From the NCBI RefSeq assembly GCF_003018255.1, contig NZ_CP027440.1: 64,000 nt of DNA, one strand, 5' to 3'. Both the position numbers and the translations under genes were made by a program. Below the pieces are notes generated by a model. It was given only the letters and a program-made list of their open reading frames with translations. It was not told where the DNA came from and made no database searches. This stretch comes from Escherichia coli. GTDB lineage: Bacteria; Pseudomonadota; Gammaproteobacteria; Enterobacterales; Enterobacteriaceae. Shown here in pieces: positions 2,311 to 6,076 of the stretch; position 1 is the first letter of the stretch; each line of letters begins with the position of its first letter.

Positions 2311-2536
2311 GATGATTTCCTGTCGAAACGCGTTCATTTGACATCATGACTATAGACGCAAAAGAGCAAATAACATTTCTTCACAACGCTTGATATTTTG
2401 TCTTATCGTCTGGTATTTTCTTTTTCTTAATCAGAATCACAAAACAAAAATCATGATTAACTATTTGATGGTATTAGATTAATTATTGACTAAGATTGTT
2501 GGTGTTTGTAATCAAAAAACCACTCAGGAGTCTGAT

Positions 2537-3391
2537 ATGGATGCTCTTAGCCGTTTGTTGATGCTTAACGCTCCACAAGGAACGATCGATAAGAATTGCG
2601 TGTTAGGAAGTGACTGGCAACTTCCACATGGTGCCGGGGAATTGTCGGTTATTCGTTGGCATGCGTTAACGCAAGGAGCGGCGAAGCTGGAAATGCCGAC
2701 GGGAGAGATTTTTAGATTACGCCCGGGAAATGTGGTCCTGCTACCACAAAATTCAGCTCATCGCCTGAGTCATGTCGATAATGAATCGACCTGTATTGTC
2801 TGTGGCACTCTTCGGCTGCAACATTCGGCGCGTTATTTTTTAACATCTTTGCCGGAAACGCTGTTTGTAGCACCAGTGAACCATAGCGTGGAATATAACT
2901 GGCTGAGGGAGGCGATCCCGTTTTTACAACAGGAATCCAGATCGGCAATGCCGGGAGTGGATGCTCTGTGTAGCCAGATCTGCGCTACATTCTTTACCCT
3001 CGCGGTGCGTGAGTGGATTGCACAGGTTAATACAGAGAAAAACATTCTCAGTTTGCTTCTGCATCCACGTCTTGGTGCGGTAATACAGCAAATGCTGGAA
3101 ATGCCAGGACACGCCTGGACCGTCGAATCGCTGGCCAGCATCGCCCACATGTCCCGGGCAAGTTTTGCCCAGCTTTTCCGTGATGTTTCCGGAACCACGC
3201 CGCTGGCTGTATTAACAAAGTTGCGTCTACAAATAGCGGCCCAGATGTTTTCCCGGGAAATGCTCCCTGTTGTGGTGATCGCTGAGTCAGTAGGCTATGC
3301 CAGTGAATCATCTTTTCACAAGGCGTTTGTCCGCGAGTTTGGTTGTACTCCGGGAGAATATCGGGAAAGGGTGAGACAGCTTGCACCCTGA
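2537..3391 (+). CDS. rclR: AraC-family transcriptional activator (redox-sensing), divergent from rclA
   Basis: ORF 2486..3391; ATG at 2537 preceded by AGGAG at 2526-2530; C-terminal AraC-type HTH; 284 aa. Confidence 0.85.
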   Translation: MDALSRLLMLNAPQGTIDKNCVLGSDWQLPHGAGELSVIRWHALTQGAAKLEMPTGEIFRLRPGNVVLLPQNSAHRLSHVDNESTCIVCGTLRLQHSARYFLTSLPETLFVAPVNHSVEYNWLREAIPFLQQESRSAMPGVDALCSQICATFFTLAVREWIAQVNTEKNILSLLLHPRLGAVIQQMLEMPGHAWTVESLASIAHMSRASFAQLFRDVSGTTPLAVLTKLRLQIAAQMFSREMLPVVVIAESVGYASESSFHKAFVREFGCTPGEYRERVRQLAP

Positions 3392-3918
3392 ATAAAACCG
3401 CCAGAAATCAGGGCAAAGATAATCCGCATTCCGGGAGTTGTGAGCCTTTCAACTATTTCTATTTCCAACGGTGGTTTTGGGCTTTATATATTTTTTTTGA
3501 TGGACTCTAGCTCAGTTTTTAAATAAAAACGCAAACTAAATTGCTTTAATTAAATAAAATGCCGACTATTACTTGATACGTAATTATTGTTGGTGATTTT
3601 GTTTGTACACTATCAGTGTATATCTCAATAACCCCTGAATAAGTAGCACTGAATAGGTATAAGGGATGTAGCCTTTTTAAATGGATTTCTTATGCCAAAA
3701 ATGATCGTCGATTTCCCTATAAAATGTGAGCGATGCCGAAAGAAATAAAATTAGTTATTGCATTTGAAGTTTGGATGAAAGATTATCATTTGTCATACAA
3801 ATGAGGGGTGGTATGTTGCTAGCCAATTAAAAAAGAACGCCATATTTATTGATGATTGATCCCCCGGAAGGGGGGAACCATCGGGCATAAATGGGCATGA
3901 AGTAATGGAGTATTAGTT

Positions 3919-4638
3919 GTGAATGTCAATTTCTTTGTCACCTGTATTGGTGACGCCCTGAAATCAAGAATGGCACGAGACTCCGTGCTGCTACTGGAAA
4001 AACTCGGCTGTCGCGTAAATTTCCCGGAGAAACAGGGATGCTGCGGTCAGCCTGCGATCAATAGTGGTTATATCAAAGAAGCGATTCCAGGGATGAAAAA
4101 TCTGATCGCCGCACTGGAGGATAACGACGATCCCATTATTTCACCGGCTGGCTCTTGCACCTATGCCGTAAAAAGTTACCCGACGTATCTGGCGGATGAA
4201 CCTGAATGGGCATCACGTGCCAAAAAGGTTGCCGCGCGTATGCAGGATCTCACCTCTTTTATTGTTAATAAATTAGGGGTAGTCGATGTAGGTGCCAGTT
4301 TGCAAGGGAGAGCGGTGTATCACCCATCTTGTAGCCTGGCCCGTAAGCTGGGGGTGAAGGACGAGCCACTTACGTTACTGAAAAATGTGCGTGGACTGGA
4401 GTTGTTGACCTTTGCTGAACAGGATACCTGCTGCGGATTTGGCGGCACGTTCTCGGTCAAAATGGCCGAAATATCCGGCGAGATGGTGAAAGAAAAGGTT
4501 GCGCACCTGATGGAAGTCCGCCCTGAGTATTTAATAGGTGCTGACGTGAGTTGCCTGCTGAACATCAGTGGGCGATTACAACGGGAAGGGCAGAAAGTCA
4601 AAGTGATGCATATTGCTGAAGTGCTGATGAGCCGCTGA
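3919..4638 (+). CDS. ykgE: cysteine-rich (CCG) domain protein, LutA-like subunit
   Basis: 239-aa ORF with GTG start; repeated CxxCC/CCG motifs; first gene of ykgEFG. Confidence 0.85.
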   Translation: MNVNFFVTCIGDALKSRMARDSVLLLEKLGCRVNFPEKQGCCGQPAINSGYIKEAIPGMKNLIAALEDNDDPIISPAGSCTYAVKSYPTYLADEPEWASRAKKVAARMQDLTSFIVNKLGVVDVGASLQGRAVYHPSCSLARKLGVKDEPLTLLKNVRGLELLTFAEQDTCCGFGGTFSVKMAEISGEMVKEKVAHLMEVRPEYLIGADVSCLLNISGRLQREGQKVKVMHIAEVLMSR

Positions 4639-4648
4639 GGATATAAAG

Positions 4649-6076
4649 ATGTCGATCAAAACCAGTAATACAGATTTTAAGACACGCATCCGTCAGCAAA
4701 TTGAAGATCCGATCATGCGCAAAGCGGTGGCAAACGCGCAGCAGCGTATTGGGGCAAATCGGCAAAAAATGGTCGATGAATTGGGGCACTGGGAGGAGTG
4801 GCGCGATCGGGCCGCCCAGATACGTGATCATGTTCTGAGTAATCTCGACGCTTATCTGTACCAGCTCTCAGAAAAAGTGACGCAAAACGGCGGTCACGTC
4901 TATTTTGCAAAAACCAAAGAAGACGCTACCCGCTACATTTTACAGGTTGCCCAACGCAAAAATGCCCGGAAGGTGGTGAAATCTAAATCGATGGTGACCG
5001 AAGAGATTGGTGTCAATCATGTGTTGCAGGATGCTGGCATTCAGGTGATTGAAACCGATCTGGGTGAATACATTCTCCAGCTGGATCAAGATCCGCCCTC
5101 TCATGTTGTGGTCCCGGCAATTCATAAAGATCGCCATCAGATCCGTCGAGTGCTACACGAACGTCTGGGCTATGAGGGGCCGGAAACGCCTGAAGCGATG
5201 ACCTTATTCATTCGGCAAAAAATCCGCGAAGATTTCCTCAGTGCTGAAATAGGTATTACCGGCTGTAATTTCGCGGTGGCAGAGACCGGTTCGGTATGCC
5301 TGGTGACCAATGAAGGTAATGCGCGAATGTGTACCACGCTGCCTAAAACGCATATTGCAGTGATGGGAATGGAGCGTATTGCCCCCACGTTTGCCGAGGT
5401 AGATGTATTGATCACCATGCTGGCGCGCAGTGCCGTTGGTGCACGTTTGACGGGATACAACACCTGGTTGACAGGACCGCGCGAAGCGGGGCACGTTGAT
5501 GGTCCTGAAGAGTTTCATCTGGTTATTGTCGATAACGGGCGTTCTGAGGTGCTGGCCTCTGAATTTCGGGATGTGCTGCGCTGTATTCGTTGCGGGGCTT
5601 GTATGAATACTTGTCCGGCATATCGCCATATTGGCGGTCATGGATATGGCTCTATTTATCCAGGGCCAATTGGTGCGGTGATTTCCCCGTTACTTGGCGG
5701 CTATAAAGATTTTAAAGATTTACCCTACGCCTGCTCTTTATGCACCGCTTGTGACAGCGTGTGTCCGGTGCGTATTCCGCTGTCAAAACTGATTTTGCGT
5801 CATCGTCGGGTGATGGCTGAAAAAGGGATCACCGCAAAAGCAGAGCAACGGGCGATAAAAATGTTCGCTTATGCCAATAGTCATCCAGGATTGTGGAAAG
5901 TCGGGATGATGGCTGGTGCTCATGCGGCAAGCTGGTTTATCAATGGCGGCAAAACACCACTCAAATTTGGCGCGATTAGCGACTGGATGGAAGCACGCGA
6001 TCTTCCTGAAGCTGACGGAGAGAGTTTCCGTAGTTGGTTTAAGAAACATCAGGCGCAGGAGAATAAGAATGGATAA
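4649..6076 (+). CDS. ykgF: iron-sulfur protein with 4Fe-4S ferredoxin motifs, LutB-like subunit
   Basis: 475-aa ORF; CxxCxxCxxxCP motifs (CIRCGACMNTCP, CSLCTACDSVCP). Confidence 0.9.
   Translation: MSIKTSNTDFKTRIRQQIEDPIMRKAVANAQQRIGANRQKMVDELGHWEEWRDRAAQIRDHVLSNLDAYLYQLSEKVTQNGGHVYFAKTKEDATRYILQVAQRKNARKVVKSKSMVTEEIGVNHVLQDAGIQVIETDLGEYILQLDQDPPSHVVVPAIHKDRHQIRRVLHERLGYEGPETPEAMTLFIRQKIREDFLSAEIGITGCNFAVAETGSVCLVTNEGNARMCTTLPKTHIAVMGMERIAPTFAEVDVLITMLARSAVGARLTGYNTWLTGPREAGHVDGPEEFHLVIVDNGRSEVLASEFRDVLRCIRCGACMNTCPAYRHIGGHGYGSIYPGPIGAVISPLLGGYKDFKDLPYACSLCTACDSVCPVRIPLSKLILRHRRVMAEKGITAKAEQRAIKMFAYANSHPGLWKVGMMAGAHAASWFINGGKTPLKFGAISDWMEARDLPEADGESFRSWFKKHQAQENKNG

Follow-up and report, generated by a model that had tools for sequence, protein, structure and literature searches.

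Location and content of the rclR–ykgE intergenic region

Positions 3392–3918 of the window, by which we mean the entire 64-kb stretch of Escherichia coli DNA analysed, make up the intergenic DNA between rclR (stop codon at 3389–3391) and ykgE (GTG start at 3919), just as the first-pass annotation had delimited it. The flanking genes correspond to rclR (b0305) and ykgE (b0306) of MG1655, in which the equivalent segment (321082–321607) has no annotated feature; likewise, none is annotated under it among the E. coli records listed. The region was found in 5169 of 5426 complete E. coli genomes, in a single copy in each. Its GC content of 35.1%, against 51.0% for the window, bears out its earlier description as AT-rich, and the value drops to 31.1% in the 264 bp at 3454–3717. 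When all ORFs of at least 10 codons were enumerated, none in the gap reached 60 aa, again as described: the longest lying wholly within it has 31 aa, and the longest ones touching it (55 and 50 aa) both start inside rclR. For rclR itself, the mechanically called ORF begins at a TTG at 2486 (2486–3391, 301 aa), and the annotated gene is 855 bp long (284 aa) with its start at ~2537.

Three possible contents had been proposed for this DNA: the ykgEFG promoter, a small protein gene and a small RNA. The first is borne out by mutational footprints and a start site from published work, together with strong conservation across species; the other two found no support. It had not been foreseen that a lost lactate-permease gene left the debris that makes up about 60% of the gap. 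Thus, the region is very probably a composite of a live ykgEFG control region and dead gene debris. It is otherwise an ordinary one, as its regulatory core is already known from work published between 2018 and 2020. The main practical value lies in annotation: a 0.5-kb featureless stretch can now be labelled base by base as promoter, start site, YieP operator, activator site, 5' UTR and relic, with nothing in it that would surprise a specialist.

The ykgEFG promoter and the YieP operator

The ykgEFG operon encodes a LutABC-type respiratory L-lactate dehydrogenase; YkgEFG has been described as such an enzyme, needed for the use of L-lactate in anaerobic nitrate respiration (PMC9701030). The features of its control region are as follows:

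3718–3757, plus strand: conserved activator block (Reg-Seq site, conservation)
3721–3743, plus strand: Reg-Seq 'FNR' activator site, with TGTGA at 3726–3730, centred at about −60.5
3758–3763, plus strand: −35 hexamer TTGCAT (Reg-Seq footprint; invariant in Escherichia, Citrobacter and the E. coli island)
3781–3786, plus strand: −10 hexamer GATTAT (strongest Reg-Seq signals; invariant across species)
3787–3803, no strand assigned: YieP operator, a 7-3-7 inverted repeat CATTTGT-CAT-ACAAATG (Reg-Seq, ChIP-exo motif, conservation)
3794, plus strand: ykgEFG transcription start site (SMRT-Cappable-seq)

Reg-Seq mutagenized 160 bp at the ykgE promoter (PMC7567609). We calibrated its index on the published YieP matrix, such that its positions 80–94 correspond to ATTTGTCATACAAAT, i.e., 3788–3802 of the window. 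On this scale, expression-lowering mutations fall at indices 49–53 (3757–3761), in the −35 hexamer, and the strongest signals, also expression-lowering when mutated, at 3782, 3785 and 3786, in the −10 hexamer; mutations at 3804–3867 have little effect on the mRNA level (PMC7567609). SMRT-Cappable-seq defines an operon at NC_000913.3 321483–324602 on the forward strand, comprising b0306, b0307 and b0308 in a full-length transcript (PMC6131387). Position 321483 of MG1655 corresponds to 3794 of the window, 8 nt past the −10 hexamer and inside the operator. The transcript mapping suggested in the first-pass annotation is therefore available in published long reads, which place the start of a ykgEFG transcript within the gap. 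The hexamers, functional by the published footprint, are separated by 17 nt, within the 16–18 bp expected of a sigma-70 promoter, and are followed at 8 nt by the mapped 5' end. Sigma-70 RNA polymerase would thus use TTGCAT and GATTAT and initiate at 3794.

The operator is a perfect palindrome that overlaps the start site. Its core (3788–3802; reverse complement ATTTGTATGACAAAT) is spelled out by positions 80–94 of both the Reg-Seq energy matrix and the PWM, and the wild-type sequence is described there as the strongest binder possible (PMC7567609). Mutations at 3789–3801 raise expression, a signal that disappears in a yieP deletion, and mass spectrometry captured YieP on ykgE promoter DNA (PMC7567609). 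The repeat also matches the inverted-repeat motif atTTGTaTGAcaAAT derived for YieP by ChIP-exo, and deleting yieP raises ykgEFG expression about 10-fold (PMC7642389). The 64-kb window contains no other exact match. Binding and repression of ykgEFG by YieP are taken from these published experiments; as the start site lies inside the operator, the simplest mechanism, judging by position, would be a steric block of initiation by a dimer of this GntR/FadR-family regulator seated on the inverted repeat. This arrangement is that of the other YieP-repressed promoters of E. coli (yohJK, rydC and adiY), where the operator likewise matches atTTGTaTGAcaAAT and lies at the start site; no difference from this class was found, the present locus being the same ykgEFG locus in another strain, with derepression in the yieP deletion already published. 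YieP-like palindromes in Budviciaceae were discounted as operator evidence because they overlap the permease stop codon.

To assess conservation, 72 loci coding for relatives of YkgE were used along with ten further E. coli genomes. The identities of E. coli to three other Escherichia species, by segment, are:

AT-rich spacer: 55%
Activator block, 3718–3757: 90–93%
−35 hexamer: 100%
17-nt promoter spacer: 29–35%, length preserved
−10 hexamer: 100%
Operator: 100%
First half of the UTR, 3804–3856: 63–65%
Hairpin region: 70–75%
Ribosome-binding region, 3885–3918: 85%

The activator block, the hexamers and the operator architecture are also present in Citrobacter and in an accessory lactate island of E. 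coli, in which the operator reads TTTTGTCATACAAAT or TTTTGTCGTACAAAT, TTTTGTCATACAAAT being a Citrobacter version. As read from these alignments, the conservation footprint independently supports the published promoter architecture. The promoter spacer (3764–3780) keeps its length exactly, and its identity is well under that of the surrounding unconstrained DNA.

An activator site and proposed control by oxygen

Upstream of the promoter, Reg-Seq lists an FNR activator at −102 to −80 of its own frame, with an activator footprint seen solely under anaerobic conditions and peaking on AAAATGTGA at 3722–3730 (PMC7567609). The centre of this site (3733.5) lies at −60.5 relative to the start at 3794, and it is followed within the block by an A-rich stretch resembling an UP element. 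A 28-nt core of the block is exactly preserved in 20 loci, including those of Citrobacter and the E. coli island. The assignment to FNR was based only on growth-condition dependence and motif similarity: the best register, GTGAG-CGAT-GCCGA, agrees with TTGAT-N4-ATCAA at about 5 of 10 positions, and TGTGA fits a CRP half-site better.

In class I CRP/FNR-dependent promoters, the activator is centred near −61.5. The present promoter resembles them in its CRP/FNR-type half-site at about −60.5 and its anaerobiosis-dependent footprint, but differs in its poor match to the FNR consensus, the right half-site being very weak. Going by the published footprint and this spacing, the activating factor may be FNR, acting in the class I mode; more generally, a CRP/FNR-family site about 60 bp upstream would activate ykgEFG under anaerobiosis, most likely as a class I site.

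A second connection to oxygen runs through the repressor: the FNR-dependent small RNA FnrS represses the translation of yieP (PMC11340327). With less YieP being made on account of FnrS, low oxygen should activate the ykgEFG promoter and at the same time relieve its repression. Such a feed-forward loop would follow from two papers taken together. Tables derived from EcoCyc additionally name Lrp and Nac as regulators of ykgE.

The ykgE leader

Downstream of the start site, the following features were delineated in the transcribed leader:

3794–3918, plus strand: ykgE 5' UTR, 125 nt (from the published start at 3794 to the GTG at 3919)
3839–3896, plus strand: extended stem-loop, 58 nt (folding)
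3860–3876, plus strand: GC hairpin core, UCCCCC / GGAAG loop / GGGGGA, 43 nt upstream of the GTG
3907–3910, plus strand: Shine-Dalgarno GGAG, 8 nt before the GTG at 3919

Accordingly, the first 125 nt of the ykgEFG transcript form a leader that contains a stable stem-loop as well as a conserved region for ribosome binding, of which AATGGAGTA is invariant in Escherichia and Citrobacter. The GC hairpin flagged in the first-pass annotation is real and lies upstream of the GTG, although its rendering as CCCCCGG-AA-GGGGGG slightly misstated the loop. Among 5000 dinucleotide-shuffled versions of the gap, 106 (2.1%) had an all-GC stem of 5 bp, and the hairpin was not found as a repeated element in the window. 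Across 11 E. coli genomes its stem is preserved and its loop occurs as one of two haplotypes, GGAAG or GGTGG. The extended stem-loop folds at −25.2 kcal/mol (z = −2.8; 2 of 200 shuffles equally good) and its equivalent in E. whittamii at −24.1 kcal/mol (z = −3.0); the covariation signal is weak, involving 2 of 37 pairs (covariation term −0.57). Taken as a whole, the 5' UTR is not unusual in structure (z = 0.06). The stem-loop leaves the Shine-Dalgarno sequence uncovered. The equivalent position is taken in Citrobacter and the E. coli island by a hairpin unrelated to this one, TTGATATCGCGATATCAA, which in the island sits just past the dld stop codon.

That the stem-loop is a functional post-transcriptional element, setting YkgEFG output independently of YieP, strikes us as distinctly unlikely. 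Such a reading would include its positional descent from the hairpin that separates dld and ykgE in the intact cluster, and its roles might be, for example, that of an RNase-protective or processing structure, or of a docking site for a protein or small RNA. In one loop haplotype, a GGA motif stands 40 nt away from that of the Shine-Dalgarno sequence, the geometry of CsrA sites; the K-12 haplotype lacks this motif. The first half of the UTR (3804–3856) had no variable site among its 53 positions in 11 genomes, and special constraint on it was initially entertained; this idea was dropped because the share of identical records (89.5%) hardly sets it apart from the relic, which is presumably dead (86%), and because of its low cross-species identity.

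No intrinsic terminator was detected in the gap by a terminator scan; the GC hairpin is followed by AACCAUCGGG and does not constitute one, because no U run follows. Nor was a convincing rclR terminator obtained by folding 3385–3510, the hairpin before the T8 run at 3491–3498 being weak (z = 0.31). RegulonDB extends the b0305 operon to b0305–b0306, and published long reads carry rclR transcripts into ykgE. Thus, rclR has no efficient terminator here, and some of its transcripts read through into ykgE.

A permease relic and its former control region

The DNA on the rclR side of the activator block can be read as a set of remains:

3379–3453, minus strand: relic of an LctP-family L-lactate permease, codons ~341–365 of 524, VERLTTPGMRIIFALISGGFIQGAS (tblastn, synteny)
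3454–3717, no strand assigned: AT-rich remainder of a putative ancestral control region between the divergent permease and dld/ykgE genes (alignment, variation)
3454–3534, minus strand: probable former 5' leader of the lost permease gene, including the T8 run at 3491–3498 (spacing, MAFFT)
3535–3550, no strand assigned: degenerate copy ACTAAATTGCTTTAAT of the palindrome ACTGAATCGCTTCAGT (alignments)

The relic is identical at 19 of 25 residues to positions 341–365 of the Citrobacter braakii permease (tblastn, E = 1e-5, the best match in the 64-kb window) and at 20 of 25 to the permease of the E. coli island. Its DNA is 71–80% identical over 59–66 nt in 10 loci of Citrobacter and Tenebrionibacter. 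The intact 524-aa neighbour of C. braakii matches Pfam Lactate_perm at E = 1e-124; the 25-aa relic alone gave no Pfam match above threshold. Its identity is supported by synteny, as in Citrobacter, Tenebrionibacter and the E. coli island the permease gene and ykgE are divergently oriented neighbours. A longer relic in O157 (46–47 residues by tblastn) was not accepted, since the extra residues add almost no identities, and the 25 codons were retained. The homology extends beyond the gap by 13 nt, taking in the 3' end of rclR with its stop codon: the last four codons of rclR plus the stop (3379–3391) overlap, on the opposite strand, the end of the relic homology (FIQGAS). The C-terminus of rclR may owe its origin to this join with the truncated permease gene.

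Two observations locate the other edge of the fragment. The distance from the relic to the degenerate palindrome is 82 nt (3453 to 3535), which equals that from the start codon of the permease to the palindrome in the intact island (5933 to 6015), and MAFFT aligns 3454–3534 to the start and leader of the Citrobacter permease gene. This equality of spacing suggests that about 1 kb, corresponding roughly to codons 1–340, has been deleted; the fragment would thus be cut at the rclR stop codon on one side and by a ~1-kb deletion reaching to about the start codon on the other. The palindrome itself precedes intact permease genes, with exact copies in 13 loci from Citrobacter, two non-coli Escherichia and the E. 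coli island; a perfect copy lies ~80 nt upstream of the permease start at 2480–2495 in locus L010, 2599–2614 in L004 and 5918–5933 in L076. It is presumably unlike the motifs of YieP, LldR/PdhR, FNR and CRP. By its sequence, ACTGAATCGCTTCAGT could be an operator for another regulator or a 5'-leader hairpin with a GCGA loop.

Global alignment relates the whole of 3454–3717 to the divergent control region of the island (z = 8.5) and to E. whittamii (z = 12). Within E. coli, 12.5–16% of sites vary in the AT-rich DNA, against 6–9% at third codon positions, and a 14-nt indel is present; only 4 records are identical over 3508–3593. By these measures, the segment appears to evolve at a neutral-like rate. 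The left two thirds of the gap (3392–3717) would then be nonfunctional remains—a permease fragment, its leader, a decayed palindrome and an old divergent spacer—and it is these remains of the permease cluster that would account for the size and AT-richness of the gap. The relic resembles other E. coli gene remnants, such as the pseudogenes ykgA and ykgQ, in being a short, frame-preserving, syntenic and neutrally evolving fragment. It differs from them in being unannotated in MG1655 and the RefSeq genomes inspected and in the little that survives, 25 codons, 13 nt of which end rclR. As far as the literature and annotations consulted show, the relic has not been described, though this is a minor point.

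History of the lactate cluster

A permease gene adjoins ykgE in many Enterobacterales. The intact arrangement, with the permease gene divergent from dld-ykgEFG, is seen in E. coli G3/10, C. gillenii (L005) and a Citrobacter sp. (L007). At most chromosomal loci of Citrobacter, dld has been cleanly deleted, and the ykgE leader retains ~41 nt from the beginning and ~70 nt (23 codons) from the end of that gene (e.g., L010, 2795–2979). No dld remnant is detectable at the E. coli locus: alignments of the 5' UTR at 3804–3896 to dld were no better than shuffles (z = 0.8 and −0.5).

In G3/10 (locus L076, NZ_CP060075.1 859008–872575), the cluster lies in an accessory lactate island flanked by IS1 and IS5, in which the L-lactate permease gene diverges from dld-ykgE-ykgF-ykgG and a YieP-type operator of its own stands directly before dld. 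About 100 E. coli records contain a permease 90–95% identical to that of Citrobacter, and the permease search returned 92 matches on plasmids, all identity bands taken together. A similar lutABC/lutP region has been reported in ST127 isolates (PMC9769692).

The other Escherichia species do not have rclR at the position upstream of ykgE. In Escherichia sp. E1V33 (L003) and E. whittamii (L004), an aldo/keto reductase gene occupies the place of rclCBA-rclR, and the same gene lies just beyond rclC in another E. coli strain (L002). Thus, the whole rcl cluster is an insertion/deletion difference at this locus.

The ancestral arrangement invites comparison with lldPRD of E. coli and lutABC/lutP-lutR of Bacillus subtilis. 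In all of these, the lactate dehydrogenase genes cluster, or ancestrally clustered, with that of an LctP-family permease and are controlled by a GntR repressor of the FadR subfamily through a palindrome of the TnGT-N3-ACnA type. In contrast to those systems, yieP is encoded far from ykgEFG, and both the permease gene and dld have been lost from the chromosomal locus of E. coli. The relic and the intact clusters together explain why the chromosomal ykgEFG of E. coli stands alone without a transporter of its own, and they suggest that the ligand of YieP be sought among lactate-related metabolites.

Alternative readings of the region

Different promoters, transcripts and origins can be envisaged for this DNA. 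The sole consensus match in a promoter scan was TTGTCA (3790–3795) and TATGTT (3812–3817), with a 16-nt spacer and an extended −10 TG; its start at ~3822 is the RegulonDB/Huerta prediction (321511) and the one assumed in the design of the Reg-Seq library. That this is the main promoter is nevertheless highly improbable: Reg-Seq shows almost no information at 3812–3817, the strong information lying at TTGCAT and GATTAT; SMRT-Cappable-seq puts the start at 321483; and in other Escherichia a 4-nt insertion increases the spacing to 20 nt and the −10 element reads TATTCT. The candidate was therefore rejected. An independent small RNA, or a riboswitch-like leader around the GC hairpin, could draw on the local stability of the stem-loop, its maintenance in Escherichia species and the unrelated hairpin in the same position in Citrobacter and the island. 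We regard it as improbable, since the best Rfam match, at a permissive E-value, scored 15.8 bits (E = 9.7) against a gathering score of 60, with nothing above noise; no intrinsic terminator follows the hairpin on either strand; and the long reads report a full-length ykgEFG transcript rather than a short RNA. The small effect of Reg-Seq mutations at 3804–3867 on the mRNA level and, as noted for the leader, its ordinary overall structure and weak covariation also count against such an element; the sole structured piece lies within the ykgE 5' UTR. A small protein of under 60 aa is scarcely credible. There are 18 ORFs of 10–55 codons in or across the gap, including ATG-initiated ones at 3733–3804 (23 aa) and 3692–3748 (18 aa), but none has a Shine-Dalgarno sequence at a proper distance. 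Those with an ATG precede the transcription start site and span the promoter itself, and the plus-strand ORFs inside the 5' UTR have TTG starts only, with no ribosome-binding site. Their lengths are not conserved in other Escherichia, the same start giving 13 aa here and 65 aa in E. whittamii. Ribosome profiling, suggested earlier as a check for small ORFs, adds little weight: a published retapamulin Ribo-RET table has no initiation peak at MG1655 3213xx–3215xx, which is weak evidence since the operon is repressed in laboratory culture.

A different proposal concerns the AT-rich block, which might be foreign DNA, or a silencer that nucleates H-NS to shut down ykgEFG and/or rclR. A GC content of 31% over 264 bp and a neighbourhood rich in rearrangements, IS elements and pseudogenes would fit this idea. 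We consider it unlikely, as the block is not foreign, having homology both to other Escherichia species and to the control region between the divergent genes of the intact cluster (Citrobacter and the island), and it is without constraint within or between species. Incidental binding of H-NS to AT-rich debris could occur and is compatible with the explanation that we favour, namely, a live ykgEFG control region abutting the remains of a permease gene.

Variation of the control region among strains

Several strains depart from the common sequence of the ykgEFG control region. The O157:H7 strain 3384 (L079) has a T>C substitution in the −10 hexamer (GATTAT to GACTAT, at 3783) and a G>A at the edge of the operator (3803); going by their positions, these substitutions may lower or alter ykgEFG expression in that lineage. 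In strain DX6 (L075, 3248–4037), an IS1 lies 37 nt 5' of the ykgE start and replaces the entire promoter and operator, and beyond it an integrase and hypothetical genes are found in place of rclR. In EC21Z-083 and D3 (L080 and L081), the ykgE start codon, equivalent to that at 3919, is TTG instead of GTG.
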